Of a stretch of DNA of 64,000 nucleotides, positions 1 to 12,013 are shown piece after piece. The stretch covers positions 887 to 64,886 of the forward strand of contig CAZNYW010000017.1 of the NCBI GenBank assembly GCA_964577375.1, written 5' to 3'. Numbering within the stretch: position 1 is the first letter of the stretch; each line of letters begins with the position of its first letter. The notes beneath the pieces are model-generated. The model was given only the letters and a program-made list of their open reading frames with translations. It had not been told where the DNA came from and ran no database searches. This DNA comes from an uncultured Spirochaetales bacterium (lineage in GTDB: Bacteria > Spirochaetota > Spirochaetia > DSM-27196 > DATKUC01). Both the position numbers and the translations under genes were made by a program.

Positions 1-1259
1 ACGCCGACATTCTCGAGAGCCCGGTCGTCGTGGTCGAAGGGAGCTCACGCGTAACCGACATCCTCGAGGTATTGAGCGGGCGGGTCAAAAAGAACGAGCT
101 GATATCCAACACCATGTTCGACCTTCTGTTCTGCGAGGGCTGCATTGCCGGCCCGATGATGCCGAACGATCTCACCTTCTACGAACGCAAAAAGTACATC
201 ATCGATTACATGAAGAAGCGGCCACTCGTCGATGACATGGACGAGTGGGTGCGCCTGCACAACGAGTATCTTTCCATCGACCTCGGCAAGAAATTCTGTC
301 CGGCGATTCCTCAGGAAGTCGAGGTGCCGGAGTCGGAAATCAAGCGGATACTCGCGCTTACCGGGAAGCTGAAGCCGGAGGATGAGCTGAACTGCCGGGC
401 GTGCGGTTATTCCTCCTGCAGGGACAAGGCTGTAGCGGTCTACCGCGGCATCGCGGAAGTCGAGATGTGTCTGCCCTACCTGATTTCGAAGCTTGAGGTG
501 ACGATCACGGATCTGAAGGACAACCAGCTCAAGCTCATTCAAGCAGAGAAGCTCGCGTCGATGGGGCAGATGGCTGCAGGCATTGCGCACGAGATCAACA
601 ATCCGCTCGGCGTGGTACTGATGTACGCGCATCTCCTGAAGGATGCGGTCGACCTGCACGAGGAAAGCTCTTCCGACGTCTCGCGCATCATTCACGAAGC
701 GGAGCGGGCGCGGCAGATCGTTCGCGGGATCCTCAACTTCGCGCGCAAGGAGCAGCTCGTGCGCGAACCGACCAACATCAACGCCCTGCTGAGGCGGTCG
801 GCCGAATCCTTCGGTGCGCGGGCGGCGGAGATCGACTTCCGTTTCGAGCTCGACGACGATCTCGCGCAGCACGCGGTGGATCCCGATCAGCTTCGGCAGG
901 TGTTCGACAACATCATTTCGAACGCGGTCGAAGCAACCTCGGGCCGCGGACTCATCGAGATTCGAAGTGAAGAGAGCGTCGGCGGCTTTCACGTCGTGAT
1001 CGGCGATTCCGGTCCCGGTATCGCCGCCGATGTACTGCCGAAACTGTTCACTCCGTTTTACACCACGAAACCTCCCGGAAAGGGGACGGGCCTGGGGCTC
1101 GCGGTGTGTTATGGAATCGTGAAAATGCACGGAGGGACGATTCAGGCAGGCAACAGGCCGGAGGGAGGCGCGTCCTTCGACATCTTCATCAAGGATCCGG
1201 AAAAAGCGACACCGGATGACCGGCCGTCTTCCACGACGAAAACTGCGGTTTCGGGGTAA
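1..1259 (+). CDS. Sensor histidine kinase, 5' end outside the window; Cys-rich Fe-S / [FeFe]-hydrogenase-like sensory module fused to HisKA + HATPase_c
   Basis: The frame is open from nt 3, with no stop upstream of the listed GTG at 30, so the gene is cut by the window edge. FCEGC (nt 132-143) and CxxCx4Cx16C (nt 393-470, RnfB-type putative Fe-S motif) come first. They are followed by H-box AHEINNPL, N-box NIISNAVEA and G-boxes DSGPGI / GTGLGLAV. Confidence 0.8.
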   Translation, partial: ADILESPVVVVEGSSRVTDILEVLSGRVKKNELISNTMFDLLFCEGCIAGPMMPNDLTFYERKKYIIDYMKKRPLVDDMDEWVRLHNEYLSIDLGKKFCPAIPQEVEVPESEIKRILALTGKLKPEDELNCRACGYSSCRDKAVAVYRGIAEVEMCLPYLISKLEVTITDLKDNQLKLIQAEKLASMGQMAAGIAHEINNPLGVVLMYAHLLKDAVDLHEESSSDVSRIIHEAERARQIVRGILNFARKEQLVREPTNINALLRRSAESFGARAAEIDFRFELDDDLAQHAVDPDQLRQVFDNIISNAVEATSGRGLIEIRSEESVGGFHVVIGDSGPGIAADVLPKLFTPFYTTKPPGKGTGLGLAVCYGIVKMHGGTIQAGNRPEGGASFDIFIKDPEKATPDDRPSSTTKTAVSG

Positions 1260-1289
1260 CGCTTCCATGTCGGGATAGTGCGGGTGACG

Positions 1290-2768
1290 ATGCAGAGCGA
1301 TCCGGTGAAACCCGATTCAGAAACAATGTCAGTCCTCGTGGTTGACGACGAAGATGGCATGCGCGAAGGAATGCGCAGAATCCTCGGACGAGTCGGCTAC
1401 CACGTCGCCGTTGCCGACGGCGGGGTCGAGGCGATCCGGATGATCGATTCCGGACAGTACGACCTTGCTCTCATCGATCTGCGGATGCCGGAGATCGACG
1501 GATTTGCAGTCACCGACTACATTGCTCGTCGGCCCGGCAACAAAACAATCGTGGTCATTGTATCCGCTCTTGCGACGGTCGAGGCCGCCGTCGAAACGAC
1601 GAGGAAAGGGGCCTTCGATTTCCTGGTGAAACCGTTTGCACCGGCGGATCTGCTTTCGGTTGTCGAACGGGCAGGGCGTCAGTGTCGCCTTCTCCAGGAG
1701 CATGAAAAGTACCTGGTCGAGCTCGACGGGGAGAGAAGCCTGTCGCGCTCACTCATCAACTCCATGCGAGAGGGCGTGATCGTGTTCAACCTGCGTCAGG
1801 AGGTGGTTCTTCTCAACCCGCGGGCTGAGTTCTACCTCGGCACGCGATATCGGTCCGGCATGACCTCCGGCGACCTCGGTTTCGATCCAGGGTTTCCCGA
1901 CATGGTTCGCGGCGTCCTTTCCGGTGACTCCGGCGAAAAGCTGCTCGATCAGGAGATCGGGGAGCAGCGCGTTCGGACACGGATTACTCCCTACGTCCGC
2001 GGCCAGGAGGTCGGCGGCGCCATTGTTCTTCTTCACGATTTTACCGAGGAATGGCGCGCCGAGCAGGACAAGAACCGGTTTGTATCGATGGTGGCCCACG
2101 AGCTGCGCGGTCCGCTTGCGGCGATTCTGAACTACCTCAACCTGATCCTCGATCACTCGGTCGACGACGAACCGGAACGGGTTCGCGAGCTTCTCGAGCG
2201 CAGCAGGAAGCGCGGAGAGGCGCTTCTCGAGCTCGTCGGCGACCTTCTGTTTCTGAACAAACGCAATGCAGGCAAAGCAGAAAAGTCACTCGAAATACTC
2301 GATCTTTCGGAAGTGCTCACGGATGAGGTTGCGTTTGTCGAAGGCCACGCCCAGCGGGCAAACGTTACTGTACGATACGCGGCTCAGGAGGAAAGCTTTC
2401 CGTTCCTCGCAGACCGCGGCGATCTGGATCGCATATTCCTCAACCTGATGTTCAACGGCATAAAGTACAACCGGCCGGGCGGTTCGCTTTCGATAACGAT
2501 CCGGCGGACCGACGACGGACACTGGTTCGAAGTATCGTTCCGTGACACGGGAATCGGAATGACCGACGAAGAGATGAAAAATCTCTTCCAGGATTTCTTT
2601 CGCGTGCTCAACAGCAAGACAAAATCGATACCCGGAACCGGCCTCGGGCTGTCGACCGCAAAGAGAGTACTCTCCGAATACAACGGGCGGATCACCGTCG
2701 AGTCAAAACCCGATGAGGGCTCGACCTTCACGGTGCTGCTGCCGACGAGGGATTCTCTCAATGGCTGA
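1290..2768 (+). CDS. Hybrid sensor: response-regulator receiver + PAS + HisKA/HATPase_c histidine kinase
   Basis: Receiver signature VLVVDDEDG...LALIDLRMPEIDGF...LVKPF. PAS-like SLINSMREGVIVFN. H-box VAHELRGPL. N/G boxes NLMFNGIKYN, DTGIGM, GTGLGLS. Start is uncertain (GTG 1278, ATG 1290 or ATG 1326). Confidence 0.85.
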   Translation: MQSDPVKPDSETMSVLVVDDEDGMREGMRRILGRVGYHVAVADGGVEAIRMIDSGQYDLALIDLRMPEIDGFAVTDYIARRPGNKTIVVIVSALATVEAAVETTRKGAFDFLVKPFAPADLLSVVERAGRQCRLLQEHEKYLVELDGERSLSRSLINSMREGVIVFNLRQEVVLLNPRAEFYLGTRYRSGMTSGDLGFDPGFPDMVRGVLSGDSGEKLLDQEIGEQRVRTRITPYVRGQEVGGAIVLLHDFTEEWRAEQDKNRFVSMVAHELRGPLAAILNYLNLILDHSVDDEPERVRELLERSRKRGEALLELVGDLLFLNKRNAGKAEKSLEILDLSEVLTDEVAFVEGHAQRANVTVRYAAQEESFPFLADRGDLDRIFLNLMFNGIKYNRPGGSLSITIRRTDDGHWFEVSFRDTGIGMTDEEMKNLFQDFFRVLNSKTKSIPGTGLGLSTAKRVLSEYNGRITVESKPDEGSTFTVLLPTRDSLNG

Positions 2769-5175
2769 TCGGGGAGAGAATCCGGGTTCGCCGCAGAGCG
2801 AGTTCATGCGGCTTCTTTCTCACCAGATGAAGGCTCCTGTGCACGCGGTCCAGGCGCTGCTCCAGTCCATCTTCGACGCTCACAGTCAGGAGGTCCCTGC
2901 GTCGGTGAAGGATGCTCTCGAGCGCGCAATCTCCCGTGCCGGGGAAGCGGGTCGTATCGTCGACGACCTGCTCGAGTATCAGTCCTACGAGAGCGGCAGG
3001 AAGAAGGATCACCGGGATTTTGATGTCGTCGGTCTGGTGTCCGACCTTGGTCTCCGGTTTTCTCTCGGCGCGGCAGCGAAGGAGGTTAGCATCGATGTCG
3101 CGCTTCCCGAGAACCTGGCGGTCTTCGTTACCGGCGTGAGAACGGGAGTCGAGCACGCAATTCGGAACCTCATCGACAATGCCGTCAAGTATTCACCGCC
3201 TCTCGGCCGGGTGGAGATCGCGGTCGTGCTCGACGAATCGGAAAAGCGTGTACGAATCTCAGTGAGCGATGCCGGCGCCGGAATCCCGAAGACGGAGATC
3301 GAGCAGCTGTTCACGCCGTTCTTCCGCTCGAAGTCGCACGTGGCGAACACAGGCGGGACAGGCCTCGGCCTTGCGCTGACGGCGAGAATTGTCGAGGCGC
3401 ACAACGGAACGGTCCAGGTATCGTCGGAGGAGGGGAAGGGGACTACCTTCACGGTCACGCTTCCGGCTGAAAGGATAGAGCGGCTGCCTGACCGCCGTGT
3501 GCGTCGACGCAGAGTGGTCATCGTCGGCGGGGTGACATCCGGACCGAAGGCCGCGTCGAGGCTTCGTCGCCTTTCCGAAGATCTCGATATCACGATCGTG
3601 GAGCGCAACGAATTCCTTTCCTATTCGGGCTGCCAGCTTCCCTTCTTCATCCGCGATTCGATCGCGCACGATAGACTCCCTTCTCAGGCCGAGCGTCCTG
3701 CAGTCTCCTCTCACGGGACTCGTACCGCGCACTTCTTTGATGCCATGAAGAACATCACAGTGCTGAATCTAACCTCTGCCGATGAGATCGACCGTAAATC
3801 GAAAAGCCTTCGTGTGAAGCGGAGGAAGGATGGGTCGATTTTCCACGTTCCGTATGACGTTCTGATTCTCGCGACGGGCTCGGTTCCGGTCGTGCCGTCG
3901 GTTCCCGGCGGCGCGGAGGACCTCGTGTTCCCGCTGCACAGCCTCGAGGATGCGAAACGCATCACCGAGCGGCTCGGACGTGAGAACGCGCAGGACGTTA
4001 TCATCGTTGGCGGCGGACTCATCGGCGTGTCGGTCATAGAGGCTTTGGTGGCAACAGGGGCGCGGGTCACGCTGGTCGAGCGTGAATTGAACATCCTCAG
4101 CACATATTTCGATCCCGATTTTGCCGGAAAGATCGAGAACGAGCTCACGCGAAAGGGCGTGAAGGTCGCCACCGGTACTGCGATCACGTCGGTGTCACCG
4201 GTTGAAGGCGGTGTCGTCGCCCATTCGCCGGACCGTACATTCAGAGGTGATTTCGTCATCCTCAGCAGCGGCATGCGTCCGAACACTGATCTCGCCCGCG
4301 CAGCCGGGCTTGCTCTCGGGGAGACCGGGGGAATACAGGTCGACGAAGAGTTGCGCACGAGCGATCCGGACATCTTTGCGGTGGGAGACTGCGCGGAAAC
4401 GCGTCACCTGCTTACGGGACGCCACGAGTACTGGCCGCTCGGTGCCATTTCGATGAAGATGGGGCACATAGCAGCCGATGTCGTGGCCGGCAAGCGCGCC
4501 GTCTACCCCGGGTCGCTCGGCTCGGTTCTTCTCGGCTGCGTAGACCAGCAGTTCGGTCGAACCGGAGTCACCTCCGCGAGTGCGAGGTCGGCCGGGTTCG
4601 ACCCTGTCTCTTTCGTCCTCGCGGGGCCGGAGAGGCCGGGCTACGCTGCAGCGTCGACCGACATCTTCCTCAAAGTCATTGCCGATCGCCCGACACGGCG
4701 CATCATCGGCGTACAGGCTTTCGGCACCGGCGACGTCGGATCGAAGGTCTCCCTCTTTGCCACGGCAATTGCGAACGGGGTGACCACCGAGGGGATGTTT
4801 GTGCTCGATCTCGGTCACGCGCCGGAGTTCAACCATCCCATCGACATCGTCCAGGCCGCCTGCATGATGCTGAACAACAAGATGGACGGCCTCATCGAGA
4901 CGATTTCGGTTTCCGAGTTCGAGCGCGGCCGCGGCGGCCTTACCGCGGCGGCCATCGTCACGCCCGACCTGTCGTTACGGTATCTCATACCGGGGAGCGT
5001 CGAGATCACGCCGGAAAATCTGCGAAGGGAACACCTCCCCTTCGGGGAGCAGGAGCAGGTAATGCTCTACAGCCGGACATCAATGGAAGCCTACCAGGCG
5101 TATCGGTACCTCGTGCAGCGCGGGTATTCCGGCGTTCGCGTTCTCGAGGGTGGTTCTCTCTTCTGGTCGGAATAG
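2761..5175 (+). CDS. Histidine kinase fused to a CoA-disulfide-reductase/NADH-oxidase-type FAD oxidoreductase and a C-terminal rhodanese-like domain
   Basis: H-box LLSHQMKAP and G-boxes DAGAGI / GTGLGLAL. Then GxGxxG VVIVGGVTSGPKAA, redox Cys motif SYSGCQLPF (Cys at nt 3631-3633), a second dinucleotide fold IIVGGGLIGVS and AVGDCA. The C-terminal rhodanese-like fold is ...VMLYSRTSMEAY...VLEGG. ATG 2761 overlaps the upstream stop (2768). Confidence 0.8.
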   Translation: MADRGENPGSPQSEFMRLLSHQMKAPVHAVQALLQSIFDAHSQEVPASVKDALERAISRAGEAGRIVDDLLEYQSYESGRKKDHRDFDVVGLVSDLGLRFSLGAAAKEVSIDVALPENLAVFVTGVRTGVEHAIRNLIDNAVKYSPPLGRVEIAVVLDESEKRVRISVSDAGAGIPKTEIEQLFTPFFRSKSHVANTGGTGLGLALTARIVEAHNGTVQVSSEEGKGTTFTVTLPAERIERLPDRRVRRRRVVIVGGVTSGPKAASRLRRLSEDLDITIVERNEFLSYSGCQLPFFIRDSIAHDRLPSQAERPAVSSHGTRTAHFFDAMKNITVLNLTSADEIDRKSKSLRVKRRKDGSIFHVPYDVLILATGSVPVVPSVPGGAEDLVFPLHSLEDAKRITERLGRENAQDVIIVGGGLIGVSVIEALVATGARVTLVERELNILSTYFDPDFAGKIENELTRKGVKVATGTAITSVSPVEGGVVAHSPDRTFRGDFVILSSGMRPNTDLARAAGLALGETGGIQVDEELRTSDPDIFAVGDCAETRHLLTGRHEYWPLGAISMKMGHIAADVVAGKRAVYPGSLGSVLLGCVDQQFGRTGVTSASARSAGFDPVSFVLAGPERPGYAAASTDIFLKVIADRPTRRIIGVQAFGTGDVGSKVSLFATAIANGVTTEGMFVLDLGHAPEFNHPIDIVQAACMMLNNKMDGLIETISVSEFERGRGGLTAAAIVTPDLSLRYLIPGSVEITPENLRREHLPFGEQEQVMLYSRTSMEAYQAYRYLVQRGYSGVRVLEGGSLFWSE

Positions 5176-5360: not shown

Positions 5361-7172
5361 ATGGGGAGTCCCATCCAGCGGAGTGCGGAAACAGTCTGCG
5401 CTCAGCGCCACAACGACCGAACCCGCCTTATGGACATCGTCAGAGCTCTCCACGCCGAACACGGCTTCATGGACGACGACGCTATCGAGACCGTCGCCGC
5501 CCGGCTGGGCGTTCATCGCGTGGAAGTCGAGAGCATGCTGACGTTCTACTCGTTCTTCTCGCGGAAAAAACGGGGAAAACTTGTCATTCGGCTCTGCAAC
5601 GACGTCATCGACCGGATGAACGGGGCCGACCTGGTTGCCGATGCATTCCGGGAGCAGCTGGGCATCGATTTCGGGGAGACCACCCCCGACGGCAGAATCA
5701 CGCTCGAGCACACGCCGTGCATCGGGATGAGCGATCAGGCTCCTGCCGCTCTGGTGAACGACGAGGTGGTGACCTATCTTTCGACCGACCGCGTCAAGGA
5801 GATCGTAGCGATTCTCCGGCACACGGATGATGCGCACAAACTGGTCCATCGGCTCGGCGACGGGCAGAATGCGCACGATCTCATTCGCTCCATGGTGCAC
5901 AACAACGTTCGTCGCAGAGGTGAGGTCATATTCGGCTCGCACGAGGCAAACAACACCGGCCTCGCGAAGGCACTCGTGATGAGCCCGGTGGAAGTCATAA
6001 ACGAAATCAAGACCGCCCGCCTGCGGGGTCGCGGTGGGGCCGGCTTCCCGACGGGCCTCAAGTGGGAGTTCACACGCGGCGCCGAAGGCGAAAAGAAATA
6101 CGTCATCTGCAACAGCGACGAGGGCGAGCCGGGTACGTTCAAGGATCGAGTGCTTCTTACCGAGTTTCCCGATCGGATACTCGAAGGGATGACGATCGCC
6201 GGCTACGCGATAGGGGCGCAGATGGGACTGCTCTACCTTCGCGGTGAGTATGCATACCTGTATCGATACCTGGCAACGGTGCTCGAGGAGAGGCGGTCCA
6301 ACGGCCTCCTCGGCACGAACATCATGGGAAAGGATTTCTCCTTTGACGTTCGAATCGAGCTGGGGGCGGGAGCCTACATATGTGGCGAGGAGACCGCGCT
6401 GATAAGCTCGCTCGAAGGCACTGCCGGCCTGCCCAAGACGAAACCGCCGTTCCCGGCGCAGGAGGGATTTCTCAGCCGACCGACCGCCGTAAACAATGTT
6501 GAGACACTCTGCGTCGTTCCCGACATTCTCGACCGCGGCGCCGCCTGGTTCGCCGGGATCGGATCGAAGAACAGCTCCGGAACGAAGCTCCTGAGCGTAG
6601 CGGGAGATTGCGCGCGGCCCGGTATCTACGAGTATCCCTTCGGTGTGACCGTCGCCCAGATCCTCAAGGATACCGGGGCCGAGGATACCTACGCGGTACA
6701 GGTCGGCGGCGCATCGGGCCAGATGATCAACGAGACGGACTTCCGGCGCTCGATCTCTTACGAGGATCTTGCAACCGGCGGTTCCGTCATGATCTTCGAT
6801 CGTACCCGTGACATCCTCGACGCGGTGAAGAGCTTCATGGAGTTCTTCGTCGACGAGAACTGCGGATACTGCACGCCGTGCAGGGCGGGAAACCGCCTGA
6901 TGCTCGCCATCCTCGACCGCATCATCAAGGGCAATGGCGCGCCGGAAGACCTTGACACGTTGAAACGCATCGGCAACTCGGTGAAGATTGCCAGTCGCTG
7001 CGGGCTCGGGCAGACCTCGCCCAATCCCATCCTCAGTTCGATCGAAAAATTCGCTCCGGCTTACGAGAAGCTGATGAAGAAGAGCGGGGCGCTGCGGGCC
7101 TCTTTCGACATCGAGAGCGCACTGGCAGAGTCGTCGAAGATATCAGGGCGCCGTTCGACGGTCCTGTCCTGA
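5361..7172 (+). CDS. hoxF: NAD-reducing [NiFe] hydrogenase diaphorase subunit HoxF (NuoE-like domain + NuoF-like FMN/NADH/[4Fe-4S] module)
   Basis: GRGGAGFPTGLKW (FMN/NADH site), SRCGLGQT and CGYCTPCR cluster motifs. N-terminal thioredoxin-like NuoE-type region. GGAGG lies 7 nt upstream of the ATG. Confidence 0.9.
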   Translation: MGSPIQRSAETVCAQRHNDRTRLMDIVRALHAEHGFMDDDAIETVAARLGVHRVEVESMLTFYSFFSRKKRGKLVIRLCNDVIDRMNGADLVADAFREQLGIDFGETTPDGRITLEHTPCIGMSDQAPAALVNDEVVTYLSTDRVKEIVAILRHTDDAHKLVHRLGDGQNAHDLIRSMVHNNVRRRGEVIFGSHEANNTGLAKALVMSPVEVINEIKTARLRGRGGAGFPTGLKWEFTRGAEGEKKYVICNSDEGEPGTFKDRVLLTEFPDRILEGMTIAGYAIGAQMGLLYLRGEYAYLYRYLATVLEERRSNGLLGTNIMGKDFSFDVRIELGAGAYICGEETALISSLEGTAGLPKTKPPFPAQEGFLSRPTAVNNVETLCVVPDILDRGAAWFAGIGSKNSSGTKLLSVAGDCARPGIYEYPFGVTVAQILKDTGAEDTYAVQVGGASGQMINETDFRRSISYEDLATGGSVMIFDRTRDILDAVKSFMEFFVDENCGYCTPCRAGNRLMLAILDRIIKGNGAPEDLDTLKRIGNSVKIASRCGLGQTSPNPILSSIEKFAPAYEKLMKKSGALRASFDIESALAESSKISGRRSTVLS

Positions 7173-7192
7173 ACGAATAGAGGGAGACACGT

Positions 7193-7906
7193 ATGGCGGA
7201 CACCTTTACGTTCAATATTGACGGCACGGAAGTCACGGGCGCTCCGGGTCAGACCATAATGGAAGCGGCGGACGAGGCGGGCGTCTACATTCCGCGCCTC
7301 TGCACGATGAAGGGACTCAAGACCCTCGGAAGCTGCCGGGTTTGTACGGTCCTTGTCGACGGCCGGCCACAGGCCGCCTGCACGCAGCCGGCTGCTGCGG
7401 GAATCAACGTCGACAACGATACCGAGAAGCTCAACGCAATTCGACGCGACATCATCGAGTTGCTCTTCGTGGAGGGCAATCACTTCTGCATGTTCTGCGA
7501 GAAAAGCGGCAACTGCGAGCTGCAGGCGGCCGCGTATCGGCTCGGGATAGCGGCGCCCGAACTGCCCTATCTCTATCCCAAACGAGAAATCGACGCGACT
7601 CACCCGGAGGTTCTGATAGAACGGAACCGGTGCATTCTGTGCGGCCGGTGCGTCACCTCCTCCGAATACGCCGACGGTAAACATGTGTTCGATTTTGTCG
7701 GCAGAGGTTCCGATCGCAGGATTGCGGTCGATTCCCGGGGCGACCTCTCTGACACCAGTCTGAAGTCGACCGACAGGGCGGTGGAGGTGTGTCCCGTCGG
7801 CGCAATTCTCAAGAAGGGAACGGCGTACGCGACGCCGATCGGACGGCGGACATACGATGCGCAGCCGATCGGGGCCGACATCGAGGAGCGAGGAGGACGA
7901 ACATGA
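7193..7906 (+). CDS. hoxU: NAD-reducing hydrogenase diaphorase Fe-S subunit HoxU (NuoG N-terminal-like)
   Basis: 2Fe-2S ferredoxin motif CTMKGLKTLGSCRVC...C, His/Cys cluster HFCMFCEKSGNCELQ and 4Fe-4S motif CILCGRCV. The stop overlaps the hoxY ATG (ATGA at 7903-7906). Confidence 0.9.
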   Translation: MADTFTFNIDGTEVTGAPGQTIMEAADEAGVYIPRLCTMKGLKTLGSCRVCTVLVDGRPQAACTQPAAAGINVDNDTEKLNAIRRDIIELLFVEGNHFCMFCEKSGNCELQAAAYRLGIAAPELPYLYPKREIDATHPEVLIERNRCILCGRCVTSSEYADGKHVFDFVGRGSDRRIAVDSRGDLSDTSLKSTDRAVEVCPVGAILKKGTAYATPIGRRTYDAQPIGADIEERGGRT

Positions 7907-8448
7907 GCAAACCGAAGGTGGCGACTGCTTCGCTCGCCGGCTGTTTTGGCTGTCACATGTCCCTGCTCGACATAGACGAACGGATACTGCAGCTAATCGA
8001 CCTGGTTGATTTCGACAAATCGCCCATCGACGACATCAAGGAGTTCACCGGCCGCTGCCAGATCGGCCTTATCGAGGGTGGCTGCACCACCGACGAGAAT
8101 GTCCGTGTGCTCAAAAGCTTTCGTGAGCACTGCGACATCCTCATCTCGGTCGGGGACTGTGCTACCATGGGCGGTTTGCCTGCGCTTCGCAACACAGTTC
8201 CGCTGCGGGAATGTCTGGAAGAGGCCTATTTGAACGGTCCGACGGTCTACAACCCTGAGAAGAAGATACCGGGAGATCCGGAAATCCCGTTGATGCTCGA
8301 CAGGGTCTATCCCTGTCACGAAGTGGTAAAGATCGATTATTTCCTCCCCGGCTGCCCTCCCTCGGCTGACACGCTGTGGGAAGCGTTGACCGCACTTCTC
8401 AGTGATAAACCCGTGAAGCTGCCCTACTCACTGCTCAAGTACGATTGA
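7903..8448 (+). CDS. hoxY: [NiFe] hydrogenase small subunit, group-3 type (HoxY)
   Basis: Internal ATG of listed ORF 7789-8448. MSKPKVATASLAGCFGCHMS, GDCATMGG and PGCPP motifs typical of short cytoplasmic small subunits. Confidence 0.9.
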   Translation: MSKPKVATASLAGCFGCHMSLLDIDERILQLIDLVDFDKSPIDDIKEFTGRCQIGLIEGGCTTDENVRVLKSFREHCDILISVGDCATMGGLPALRNTVPLRECLEEAYLNGPTVYNPEKKIPGDPEIPLMLDRVYPCHEVVKIDYFLPGCPPSADTLWEALTALLSDKPVKLPYSLLKYD

Positions 8449-8467
8449 GCGGAAGGAGAAACAGACC

Positions 8468-9913
8468 ATGGCCCAGGAAGGTACTGCTTACAAGCGCGTC
8501 GTTATCGAACCGGTCACGAGGATCGAAGGACACGGCAAGGTCTCGCTTCTGCTCGACGAGTCGGGCGGCATACATCAGGCCCGATTCCACGTTGTCGAGT
8601 TCCGCGGATTCGAACGCTTCGTGCAGGGGCGCCCATACTGGGAAGCTCCCGTGCTGGTGCAGCGACTCTGTGGAATCTGCCCGGTGAGTCACCACCTCGC
8701 CGCGGCGAAAGCGATGGACCGAATTGTGGGCGCGGACAAGCTCACACCGACGGCGGAAAAGATGCGACGGCTGATGCACTACGGTCAGTTCTTTCAGTCG
8801 CATTCGCTGCACTTCTTCCACCTCGTTTCACCCGACCTCCTGTTCGGGTTCGAAGCGGATCCCGCGATCCGCAACGTCATCGGGGTGGCGAGAAAGTATC
8901 CCGACCTCGCCGTCCAGGGCGTCATGATGCGCAAGTTCGGACAGGAGATCATCAAGGCGACCGCCGGAAAGAAGATACACGGCACCGGGGCAATCCCGGG
9001 AGGCATAAACAAGAATCTTTCGATAGAGGAACGGGACTTTCTGTTGAAGGATATCGACCAGATGATCGAATGGTCGCGCGGCGCCGTGAAAATTGCCCGC
9101 GACTACACTGCCGAGAACGCGTCGCGGCTCGGCGAGTTCGCTGCCTTCGACTCGAATCACCTGTCTATAGTCCGTCCCGACGGGGCGCTCGAGATATACG
9201 ACGGTGAGCTGCGCGCGATCAGCGCCGACGGAAAGACGATCTTTGATCACGTGGACTGTCAGACCTTCCCGGAGTACCTTGCCGAAGAGGTTCGCGACTG
9301 GTCCTACATGAAGTTTCCGTTCATCCGGTCGCTCGGACCCGAGAAAGGGTGGTATCGCGTCGGGCCGCTTGCACGCGTCAACAACTGCAGCTTCATCGAC
9401 ACGCCCGAGGCCGAGGCTGCCAGAAAGGAATTCTACAAAACGCTCGGAGAAGGGCCATGCAACCTCACGATGGCTTATCACTGGGCGCGAATGATCGAGA
9501 CGCTGCACGCCGCTGAAAAGATTCGCGAACTGCTCAACGACAGCGACCTGCAGGGCAAGGACCTGACGGTGAAAGGCAAGCGGCGCAAAGTCGGTATCGG
9601 CGTGATCGAAGCGCCGCGCGGGACGCTCTTTCACTATTACGAGGTGGACAAGAACGACCAGATCGTGAGAGCGAATCTGATTGTCTCGACGACGAACAAC
9701 AACGAACCGATCAACAGGGCGGTCGCCGACGTGGCCGAGAAGGACCTCGCAGGCAAGGAGCTGACCGAAGGGCTTCTGAACCATATCGAGGTAGCGATTC
9801 GCGCATACGACCCCTGCCTTTCGTGTGCTACGCACGCGATGGGGCAGATGCCGCTTCTGGTGGAGCTCTACGATTCGAACAACCAGCTTCTCGACAGGAA
9901 GACCAAGGATTGA
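8468..9913 (+). CDS. hoxH: [NiFe] hydrogenase large subunit (HoxH)
   Basis: RIEGHG, N-terminal RLCGICPVSH and C-terminal DPCLSCATH Ni-Fe ligand motifs. A 24-aa C-terminal extension after the His matches a protease-processed precursor. Confidence 0.95.
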   Translation: MAQEGTAYKRVVIEPVTRIEGHGKVSLLLDESGGIHQARFHVVEFRGFERFVQGRPYWEAPVLVQRLCGICPVSHHLAAAKAMDRIVGADKLTPTAEKMRRLMHYGQFFQSHSLHFFHLVSPDLLFGFEADPAIRNVIGVARKYPDLAVQGVMMRKFGQEIIKATAGKKIHGTGAIPGGINKNLSIEERDFLLKDIDQMIEWSRGAVKIARDYTAENASRLGEFAAFDSNHLSIVRPDGALEIYDGELRAISADGKTIFDHVDCQTFPEYLAEEVRDWSYMKFPFIRSLGPEKGWYRVGPLARVNNCSFIDTPEAEAARKEFYKTLGEGPCNLTMAYHWARMIETLHAAEKIRELLNDSDLQGKDLTVKGKRRKVGIGVIEAPRGTLFHYYEVDKNDQIVRANLIVSTTNNNEPINRAVADVAEKDLAGKELTEGLLNHIEVAIRAYDPCLSCATHAMGQMPLLVELYDSNNQLLDRKTKD

Positions 9914-10383
9914 CCGAAACTGCGGAGCAGACAGTTCTGGTACTCTGCTACGGCAATCCGGCGCGCGAGGACGACGGGCTCGGGCCGGCGGTCGCCGAGA
10001 TGCTGGCGTCGTCTCCCATGGCGGGGGCGAGAGTCGAATCCAACTATCAGCTTCTGGTCGAGGATGCGGTAGCCGTCTCGGAGGCGTCACTCGTCGTCTT
10101 TGTGGACGCTGCCGCGGCGGGACCTGAACCCTTCGAGTTTCGGACAATCGAACCGGGCGAGACCGGCGGGTACATGGCGCATAGCATTGGGCCGGCGCAG
10201 CTTCTCGGGCTTGCCCGCGAGTTGTTCGGCAGGTCGCCCGTGGCATACATGCTTGCGATCCGCGGGTACTCGTTCGAGATGTTCCACGAGGGGCTCTCGC
10301 GCCGGGCGTCCGAAAACCTCTCCCGCGCGACAGAATACCTGCGCGAGTTTGTGCGTGCGAGGGTTGTCGAGGAGGTAACATGA
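9910..10383 (+). CDS. hoxW: Hydrogenase maturation endopeptidase (HoxW/HycI family)
   Basis: VLVLCYGNPAREDDGLGPAV signature and position directly after hoxH. Start taken as TTG 9910, overlapping the hoxH stop; the start is uncertain. Confidence 0.8.
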   Translation: MTETAEQTVLVLCYGNPAREDDGLGPAVAEMLASSPMAGARVESNYQLLVEDAVAVSEASLVVFVDAAAAGPEPFEFRTIEPGETGGYMAHSIGPAQLLGLARELFGRSPVAYMLAIRGYSFEMFHEGLSRRASENLSRATEYLREFVRARVVEEVT

Positions 10384-10393
10384 GGAGGCAGCG

Positions 10394-10771
10394 ATGAGGG
10401 AGGGCAAGTTCGTTGTTCTGGCGATCGATGACGACGAGGACGTCTTGTATGCTCTTCGGATAGTGCTGGAAAAGAACGGCTACGTCATGTCCGAGGCCCA
10501 TTCGGCCGAAACTGGCGTTCGCTCTTTCAAGAATGAACGACCGGACTTCATCATAGTCGATCTGATGATGGAATCGATCGACGCGGGCAAGAACCTGGTG
10601 AAGGAACTGAAGTTCCTGGGCAATGAGGCTCCGGTGTACATGCTCTCTTCGGTCGGCGACGAGCTGTCGGGAAATGTCGACGTTCGGGAGCTCGGCCTTC
10701 AGGGAGTGTTCCAGAAGCCGATTAACAACGATGTTCTCCTCAAGACCCTGGAGCGGAAGCTTAAGAAGTAG
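10394..10771 (+). CDS. Single-domain response-regulator receiver (CheY-like), last gene of the hox operon
   Basis: VVLAIDDDED, phospho-acceptor context FIIVDLMM, and MLSS / FQKP conserved positions. 125 aa with no output domain. Confidence 0.85.
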   Translation: MREGKFVVLAIDDDEDVLYALRIVLEKNGYVMSEAHSAETGVRSFKNERPDFIIVDLMMESIDAGKNLVKELKFLGNEAPVYMLSSVGDELSGNVDVRELGLQGVFQKPINNDVLLKTLERKLKK

Positions 10772-11498
10772 CGATCAGCGCTTCGAGTGCCGGTGCGAGG
10801 AATGCTGCGAAACGTCCCTCGACGAGTTCCTCGGGCTTTCCAATTTCGTCTTCGATTTCGGGCGTGTAGGGGATCTTTCCGAGCAGCGTCAATCCTCGGT
10901 CCGGCGGCAGAGGTGTCGGAGTGGTCTGGTCGTCGCGTACCATGTTGAGGATGCATCCGGCCGGATGCACGCGCCCGGCGTTCAGCACCTCCGCAAGCCG
11001 CTCCATTATGCGAAGAGACAGGGTGGATGCGCTCGAGACCAGCGCCACCCGGACTCGCGGAACGTACCGTGAAACGTCGAGAATCGCTTCGCCGATTCCC
11101 GGCGGCATGTCGATGACGAGCAGATCCAGAGAGCCCCATACGACCACTGCGAGCAGTTCCCGGATAGCGTCGGTAACCGCGTCCCCACGAAGTGCGACCC
11201 CTCGCTCGCCGGTAAACGGGGTTATTCCCATGTAGCGCAGCCCGAAGGCGGCTTCGAACGGCAGGATGCCGCCCTCTTCCTGCGGAAGGTGGGGATCGAT
11301 ACCGAGGATGAGATGGGCAGATGCACCGTGGAAATCGAGATCGAGCAGGCCCACTTTGCGGCCCGCCTTCGCGAGCAGCAGCGCAGCAGTTGCCGAGCAG
11401 CAGCTCTTGCCGACGCCGCCTTTTCCGCTGGCAAAGGCGAGAATCGTCGTTACCGATTGCAGCCGGTGCTGGATGATGGAAACCCGGGGGTCGCTCAT
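10761..11498 (-). CDS. Mrp/MinD-family P-loop ATPase (ApbC/NBP35-like), probable [NiFe]-hydrogenase Ni-insertion partner of HypA
   Basis: Deviant Walker A ASGKGGVGKS. Internal ATG 11498 of listed ORF 10761-11576 forms ATGA with the hypA stop. The 3' end overlaps the convergent receiver gene by 11 nt. Confidence 0.75.
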   Translation of the reverse strand: MSDPRVSIIQHRLQSVTTILAFASGKGGVGKSCCSATAALLLAKAGRKVGLLDLDFHGASAHLILGIDPHLPQEEGGILPFEAAFGLRYMGITPFTGERGVALRGDAVTDAIRELLAVVVWGSLDLLVIDMPPGIGEAILDVSRYVPRVRVALVSSASTLSLRIMERLAEVLNAGRVHPAGCILNMVRDDQTTPTPLPPDRGLTLLGKIPYTPEIEDEIGKPEELVEGRFAAFLAPALEALIATS

Positions 11499-11923
11499 TG
11501 AGCCTCTTGCCTCGGTTGCGGCTCGTTGAGCTCTATCGACGCCAGCGTGATTCCCCGCCCCTTTGTGACCTGGCAATCGGCACTACTGCACGAGGGGCAG
11601 TGCACGAAGGCGTGCGCGGCCTCGGGAAGAAAATGGATAGCTTCCCGGTGTTCATCGGTGAGGCCGTCCACTTGGTCGAATCCCCACTGATGGCCGCAGA
11701 CATTGCACCTGAAGCGAACGGGCTCGACAATGATGCGGACGGCATCGCGATCGTGCGGAACGTCGTCGAGCATGGTGGCAAGACCGTCCTCGAAAATCCC
11801 GCGGTCGATGTTCTGGAGCTCTCCGAAGACGAGGTTTACGGCGTGAAGTGTCGCGCCGGAATGGCCCGCCATTTCGTTTCTGATCGTCGCCGCGACGGAT
11901 TCGGCAAGTGCCCATTCGTGCAT
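11495..11923 (-). CDS. hypA: Hydrogenase nickel incorporation protein HypA
   Basis: Canonical N-terminus MHEWALAES (Ni-binding MHE) and zinc motifs CNVC...CPSC. Internal ATG of listed ORF 11495-11995. Confidence 0.9.
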   Translation of the reverse strand: MHEWALAESVAATIRNEMAGHSGATLHAVNLVFGELQNIDRGIFEDGLATMLDDVPHDRDAVRIIVEPVRFRCNVCGHQWGFDQVDGLTDEHREAIHFLPEAAHAFVHCPSCSSADCQVTKGRGITLASIELNEPQPRQEAQ

Positions 11924-12013
11924 GGAGCTATAGTAGCTCCTATTGCAGACAAGGGAAAGTGCGGATAGCATTGAATCGGCCAACAGTAGCATCATCTTAG
12001 CGGAAGGTTTCCC

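Follow-up and report, generated by a model that had tools for sequence, protein, structure and literature searches.

The window examined here, a 64,000-nucleotide stretch from an uncultured Spirochaetales bacterium, corresponds to C17:887-64886 of an assembly of 4.54 Mb in 135 contigs, with 98.6% completeness and a G+C content of 0.60. It opens inside a gene, termed hydS-HK, that probably encodes a soluble sensor histidine kinase with a HydS-type [FeFe]-hydrogenase input, a putative H2 or redox sensor feeding a receiver cascade. The reading frame (3..1259, forward strand) is open at the 5′ edge of the window and terminates with a TAA stop at 1257-1259; it comprises the following features.

1..1259 (+): 3′ 1257 nt of the hydS-HK gene (418 codons and the stop), 5′ end cut by the window
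117..155 (+): H-cluster motif 3, FDLLFCEGCIAGP, with the equivalents of CpI Cys499 and bridging Cys503 in CxxC spacing
390..470 (+): C-terminal Fe-S domain, Cx2Cx4Cx16C, RnfB-type (PF04060, Pfam E 4.8e-10)
471..647 (+): predicted continuous helix, aa 416-474 (AlphaFold2, DSSP H416-474)
561..755 (+): HisKA dimerisation and phospho-acceptor domain (Pfam E 4.5e-16), H-box AHEINNPL
879..1196 (+): HATPase_c catalytic domain with intact N, G1, F and G2 boxes (Pfam E 1.7e-25)

The 886 bases 5′ of the window on the same contig complete the gene as a single open reading frame (ORF), C17:112-2145, of 677 aa from a GTG codon. A TTG at C17:127, five codons after the GTG and preceded by GGGGAAA, is the likelier start because the N-termini of homologues read MxxVYTVGE; the protein would then have ~672 aa. 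Pfam searches of the whole protein identified two ferredoxin-type 4Fe-4S motifs (Fer4 families, aa 11-60), Fe_hyd_lg_C (PF02906, aa 81-310, profile positions 3-245 of 245, E 1.1e-40, 140.3 bits against a gathering cut-off of 22.1), PF04060 (aa 388-417), HisKA (aa 446-510) and HATPase_c (aa 552-657), all in the same frame. An earlier note, made from the window alone, had read the visible N-terminal part as the tail of a hydrogenase-like H-domain with an RnfB-type Fe-S motif, fused directly to a kinase core and lying next to a [NiFe] hydrogenase operon. Its two quoted motifs translate exactly, FDLLFCEGCIAGP at 117-155 and NCRACGYSSCRDKAVAVYRGIAEVEMC at 390-470, the latter matching the PF04060 ‘FeS’ family above its gathering score. 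The note had also named a generic Fe-S N-terminus, or a stop or frameshift ahead of the kinase, as grounds for abandoning this view; neither was found, since the H-domain is complete and the frame between the sensor and kinase modules is unbroken. No Pfam match to a PAS domain was obtained after the Fe-S domain, which passes straight into HisKA, and the sensor core is therefore of the M2e type rather than M2f or classical group C. The best hydrogenase model in NCBIfam was the monomeric [FeFe] hydrogenase subfamily with a score far under its cut-off, as expected for a divergent sensory form. In an AlphaFold2 model with a mean predicted local distance difference test (pLDDT) score of 80.9, the protein aligned with [FeFe] hydrogenases over 430-470 columns, with template modelling (TM) scores of up to 0.67 on the target, and its kinase part aligned with ZraS at a TM-score of 0.70.

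Residue equivalents were taken from HMMER alignments to solved [FeFe] hydrogenases (CpI numbering), and conservation was evaluated over 119 homologues, each with at least 59% identity. The retrieved upstream sequence supplied the remaining H-cluster motifs and the ferredoxin-like clusters that the earlier note had suggested looking for. In motif 1, SSPCP replaces TSCCP, so that the proton-relay residue Cys299 becomes Pro145 while the ligand Cys300 is kept as Cys146. In motif 2, GPCVGKKDE stands for MPCxxKxxE, with Cys355, Lys358 and Glu361 retained and Met353 replaced by Gly. Motif 3 reads DLLFC-EGCIAGP against E-x-M-x-C-P-E-G-C, with both cysteines retained and Met497 replaced by Leu; the missing residue between the two cysteines, recognized from the window sequence alone, reappears in the alignments (C.EGCIaG against CpEGCIsG). 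The four H-cluster ligands C300, C355, C499 and C503 thus correspond to Cys146, Cys194, Cys303 and Cys306, kept in 118-119 of the 119 homologues. The proton relay is further disrupted by the replacement of Ser319 with Ala165 and by the lack of any Glu aligned to Glu279 or Glu282, and Pro145 at the Cys299 site is invariant. Lys358, the Ala-Pro-Ser segment and Pro324 have established roles at the CpI diiron site; their counterparts K197, A86-P87-S88 and P170 are likewise invariant.

Invariant or nearly so are also all Fe-S and H-cluster cysteines, Glu200 (Glu361), the Ser-Pro-Met and Thr-Gly-Gly segments and the CEGC spacing; the shortened spacing is accordingly not due to chance, as it and every cysteine are invariant across the set. 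The ratio omega for the H-domain was ~0.05-0.09, and ~0.06 between two genomes without detectable maturases (the present one and the same-genus G002), values that are approximate only because synonymous divergence (dS) is saturated. Judged from these substitution patterns, the H-domain is under strong purifying selection. A pseudogene or decayed domain was considered and ruled out by the conservation and the omega of ~0.06.

The C-terminal Cx2Cx4Cx16C domain, presumably a [4Fe-4S] site, has all four cysteines invariant among the homologues. A helix predicted with modest local confidence (pLDDT ~55-77) begins right after its last cysteine, Cys415, and enters the dimerisation and histidine phosphotransfer (DHp) helix that carries the phospho-acceptor His455 (window 588-590), conserved in at least 90% of homologues. 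Residues N562, N566, D594, G596, G598, F608 and G618-L625 of HATPase_c are invariant, and ZraS is the closest solved relative (36% identity).

Direct fusion of a hydrogenase-like module to a kinase, which the earlier note had presented as unusual, is already on record. HydDB describes [FeFe] group C1 as ‘histidine kinase-linked (putative)’ (PMC5037454), Rectinema cohabitans encodes a C1 enzyme (PMC6052044), direct kinase fusions were noted in Elusimicrobia in 2020 (bioRxiv 10.1101/765248), and a 2024 study of Hydrogenedentota reported HATPase_c in C1 proteins, while hardly finding canonical H-cluster motifs and expressing doubt about them (PMC11406978). The window protein appears to match group C1, judging from the group description, from the HATPase_c reported in C1 proteins and from the R. 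cohabitans enzyme, taken together with a protein (L040) of a Rectinemataceae metagenome-assembled genome (MAG) that is 75% identical to the window protein. The class is known from genomics and widespread, and the window protein is a further member of it rather than a new kind. Compared with the kinase-fused group C proteins of genome surveys, it shares both the H-domain plus HATPase_c architecture and the proposed role.

Two sensory enzymes provide the closest experimental reference, and both bind the diiron cofactor and react with H2 (PMC8163306, PMC8924675). TamHydS of Thermoanaerobacter mathranii (subclass M2e, ‘group D’; Land et al. 2020, PMC8163306) resembles the window protein in its two N-terminal [4Fe-4S] motifs, the missing Cys299 relay, the C-terminal Cx2Cx4Cx16C motif, the lack of a PAS domain and a Leu in place of Met497; it differs in having Ser rather than Gly at Met353 and in that its kinase-like protein is encoded separately, whereas HisKA-HATPase is fused in frame here. 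TmHydS of Thermotoga maritima (subclass M2f, group C; Chongdar et al. 2018, as cited in PMC8163306 and PMC11216029) is, according to these citing accounts, likewise built of two [4Fe-4S] motifs, an H-domain and a C-terminal Fe-S core, lacks Cys299 and has Gly at Met353; the same accounts describe slow catalysis and a stabilised reduced state and, in contrast to the window protein, a C-terminal PAS domain, with separate proteins conveying the signal. The Cx2Cx4Cx16C motif has been described for both enzymes, the substitution pattern that defines them is that of the window protein, and the characterised sensory relatives show very low turnover (PMC8163306).

A mechanism consistent with these features can be proposed. 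The H-domain would bind an H-cluster through Cys146, Cys194, Cys303 and Cys306, and the disabled proton relay (Cys299 to Pro, Ser319 to Ala, relay Glu absent) would limit it to slow H2 turnover, so that the enzyme would mainly equilibrate its own clusters with ambient H2. Electrons may pass among the H-cluster, the two N-terminal [4Fe-4S] clusters and the C-terminal Cx2Cx4Cx16C cluster. Since Cys415, the last ligand of that cluster, heads the long helix that continues to His455 in the DHp helix, we propose that the redox state of the C-terminal cluster sets the balance of kinase and phosphatase activity. Phosphate would then be passed to candidate partners, the adjacent receiver-PAS-kinase hybrid and/or a stand-alone receiver, which would tune the neighbouring NAD-linked hydrogenase: the Hox [NiFe] enzyme in this clade and the HydABC [FeFe] enzyme in the rest of the family, with a direction of control that is itself conjectural. 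An analogous logic is provided by HoxBC/HoxJ/HoxA of Cupriavidus necator, in which a histidine kinase is under the control of a crippled, H2-sensing hydrogenase. That HoxBC system (HydDB [NiFe] group 2b) governs the expression of energy-converting hydrogenases, including the soluble NAD-linked Hox. It differs from the present one in its unrelated metal site and fold and in keeping sensor and kinase as separate proteins; its output regulator is known (HoxA), whereas none was found in the cluster of the window. To our knowledge, a signalling output has yet to be demonstrated for any [FeFe]-type H2 sensor, and the joining of sensor and kinase in one chain would make an effect of H2 on autophosphorylation directly testable.

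The sensor module is widely distributed. A word-indexed search retrieved 7,328 relatives, the top 120 being nearly all of the same architecture and mostly from spirochaete MAGs, and at least 583 loci in species-representative genomes encode a full-length relative, across ~15 phyla that include Spirochaetota, Planctomycetota, Acidobacteriota, Ignavibacteriota/Bacteroidota, Chloroflexota, Myxococcota, Actinomycetota, Nitrospirota and Hydrogenedentota. A HMMER scan with the sensor part yielded 873 clusters (50% identity level) at E ≤1e-30; among the best 150 cluster representatives, 46 have a C-terminal kinase. Other outputs on the module are sigma-54 AAA+/HTH, PAS-sigma-54, GGDEF, MCP signalling, PAS only and GAF-GAF-kinase, and such diversity behind a single input module typifies a genuine sensor domain. 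In motif 3, the CxxC form tracks the clade with kinase, sigma-54, GGDEF or MCP outputs, and the PAS-type relatives of ~570 aa among the survey representatives retain the canonical CxxxC. Individual fusions include one-component regulators with sigma-54 AAA+ activators and HTH (P0145, P0152, P0160, P0169, P0174 and P0180), a GGDEF diguanylate cyclase (P0122) and an MCP signalling domain (P0147).

The genes 3′ of hydS-HK combine further signalling proteins with the [NiFe] hydrogenase operon that the earlier note had placed beside it.

1278..2768 (+): receiver-PAS-HisKA-HATPase hybrid kinase (Pfam), 19 nt 3′ of the sensor gene
2713..5175 (+): third kinase, HisKA-HATPase with a CoA-disulfide-reductase-like flavoprotein and rhodanese (Pfam)
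5361..9913 (+): hoxF (NuoE-NuoF fusion), hoxU, hoxY and hoxH, operon of a NAD-linked soluble [NiFe] hydrogenase (Pfam)
9823-10383 (+): 186-aa ORF between hoxH and the stand-alone receiver, no family match
10394..10771 (+): stand-alone receiver domain of 125 aa, closing the hox operon (Pfam)

The whole arrangement is kept in the same-genus genomes G001 and G002 and, minus the third kinase, in relatives at 75-77% identity. The third-kinase gene is an insertion specific to the genus, as it is present in G001 and G002 and missing from the otherwise syntenic locus L037 (77% identity); its flavoprotein part is a pyridine-nucleotide-disulfide oxidoreductase. In L037, the orthologous gene is annotated with the HoxH family. 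The 186-aa ORF gave no Pfam match at E ≤1e-3 at the position where a HoxW-type endopeptidase is expected. The stand-alone receiver, a likely phospho-acceptor of the sensor kinase, has an L037 orthologue of 79.7% identity. In 38 of 80 loci surveyed over ~15 phyla, a single-domain receiver comes directly after the sensor gene; the receiver-kinase hybrid adjoins the sensor gene in 32 of these loci and in all close relatives. The stand-alone receiver is followed by hyp genes; at 10761-11995 (−), hypA is paired with a Mrp/ParA-type P-loop ATPase (PF10609) and not with a GTPase-type HypB.

Across the 80 loci, hydA was found in 55 and a NuoF-type gene (mostly hydB) in 52, in most loci directly 5′ of the sensor gene and on the same strand, in line with genome surveys in which kinase-fused group C genes usually lie next to those of trimeric group A3 [FeFe] hydrogenases. 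Unlike in these neighbourhoods, the sensor gene of the window does not adjoin a group A [FeFe] hydrogenase operon: its partner operon, and that of five close relatives, is [NiFe] hoxFUYH with hyp genes. The sensor gene lies 5′ of hoxFUYH in these six loci only, which form one small spirochaete clade (SH-aLRT, the Shimodaira–Hasegawa-like approximate likelihood ratio test, 100 in a maximum-likelihood tree). This clade lies within another spirochaete clade, in which the remaining resolved members are linked to hydBA, and a single change of context therefore suffices. A NAD-linked hydrogenase is the constant neighbour in both contexts, and most likely the receiver cascade serves it. In a sister group, for example in G010, the signalling genes are present with no hydrogenase of any kind nearby. 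In that genome, locus L033 (G010:C96) carries a receiver-HATPase_c-SAM-methyltransferase fusion at 1312-3255 (−), 3′ of the sensor kinase and a receiver-PAS protein.

The recurrent position of the gene directly after hydA, on the same strand, might alternatively indicate that the protein is a catalytically relevant hydrogenase with a secondary kinase, for instance as an additional subunit in the complex of the neighbouring hydrogenase, and a group C3 protein drawn as the ‘T subunit’ (BfuT) of bifurcating hydrogenases offers a loose precedent (PMC11406978). This is very unlikely given the missing proton-relay residues and the slow catalysis of the characterised relatives, the conservation of kinase motifs and partner receivers, the lack of an adjacent [FeFe] hydrogenase in the window and the lack of any hydrogenase near the gene in G010.

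Several observations weigh against a sensor of H2 that acts through an H-cluster on the hydrogenase beside it. In the literature, we found no biochemical study of the kinase-fused group covering its H-cluster and autophosphorylation, nor a characterised enzyme confirmed to share the motif 3 spacing, which is one residue short between the equivalents of Cys499 and Cys503; the measure of selection suffers from saturated dS. No DNA-binding output regulator was found in the cluster, and no sigma-54 promoter (TGGCAC-N5-TTGCW, up to 2 mismatches) 5′ of hoxF, with window-wide matches below chance, so that adjacency alone designates the regulated target. Models for the maturases HydE, HydF and HydG gave nothing over their cut-offs in this 98.6%-complete genome, which answers in the negative the check for hydE/F/G that the earlier note had recommended, and in its own order HydG is undetectable in eight of nine sensor carriers. 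A tblastn search of this genome with the HydG of three relatives recovered only a weak radical-SAM match.

With HydE, HydF and HydG undetected in this assembly, a diiron subcluster in this H-domain is putative, and the missing maturases keep a second alternative alive: a redox or oxygen sensor with [4Fe-4S] clusters only, whose H-domain would lack the diiron subcluster and whose kinase would report ferredoxin/NADH redox poise or O2 damage to the clusters rather than H2. Nar1/NARFL-type hydrogenase-like proteins are a parallel for such a domain. Maturases are also missing from G002 (98% complete), HydG occurs in only one of the nine carriers of the order, motif 3 is altered in spacing and motif 1 lacks its first Cys, canonical motifs were hardly found in group C1 (PMC11406978), and two more redox-type kinases lie in the same cluster. 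We nevertheless regard this explanation as rather doubtful. Residues that in CpI have no role other than at the diiron site (Lys358, Ala-Pro-Ser, Pro324 and the bridging Cys) do not vary and are under strong purifying selection. The absence of maturases is moreover not specific to the sensor, because the same genome, one of whose two group-A-type HydA genes has TSCSPGW, retains in the other a canonical TSCCPAW hydrogenase that needs the cofactor too. HydG accompanies the sensor in 35 of 50 carriers drawn from all phyla (70%); of the Hox-linked clade, G001 and G099 encode HydG as well as HydF, in contrast to this genome and G002.

The maturase gap extends beyond the sensor carriers. Among 99 genomes of the order, 85 have strong Fe_hyd_lg_C matches of canonical type and 23 a HydG match (22 above the family cut-off), and in the 18 genomes tested for both, the presence of HydF mirrors that of HydG exactly. 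The closed genome G011 (single contig, 99% complete) encodes two Fe_hyd_lg_C hydrogenases with HydF and HydG absent. In G001, hydG-hydE-x-hydF form one 5.6-kb cluster; in the present genome its upstream flank corresponds to the middle of C13, with a different continuation, and its downstream flank lies near the end of C89. This pattern would reflect either consistent loss of the maturase cluster during binning or a different maturation route; active [FeFe] hydrogenases have been reported from maturase-free organisms, and an alternative pathway has been proposed (PMC11216029).

The H2- or redox-sensing kinase remains our favoured reading. A further reading, that the sensor was re-wired once within the spirochaetes from HydABC to [NiFe] Hox and here works without HydEFG, through its [4Fe-4S] clusters alone or with an H-cluster obtained by another route, as proposed for archaea, is put forward tentatively. 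Given its size and its lasting association with NAD-linked hydrogenases in different phyla, the family probably represents a principal way for anaerobes to adjust their H2 metabolism; the window adds that the same sensor would serve a [NiFe] enzyme and that it persists under selection in genomes without known H-cluster maturases.

The two group-A-type HydA genes of this genome lie on contigs C114 and C60, which were considered as contaminants and rejected as such, since their G+C contents of 0.61 and 0.63 fit the 0.60 of the genome. The gene at G000:C60:20765-22573 (+) has TSCSPGW, with Ser for the proton-relay Cys299, and is otherwise canonical (PCTAKKFE, EVMTCPGGCIGG). At G000:C114:1968-3596 (−), a hydB-hydA operon is followed by a GGDEF-EAL gene at the place where most other phyla carry the sensor kinase, and a HATPase_c-only ORF on the same contig lies 5′ of hydB and overlaps the ORF in the hydC position.

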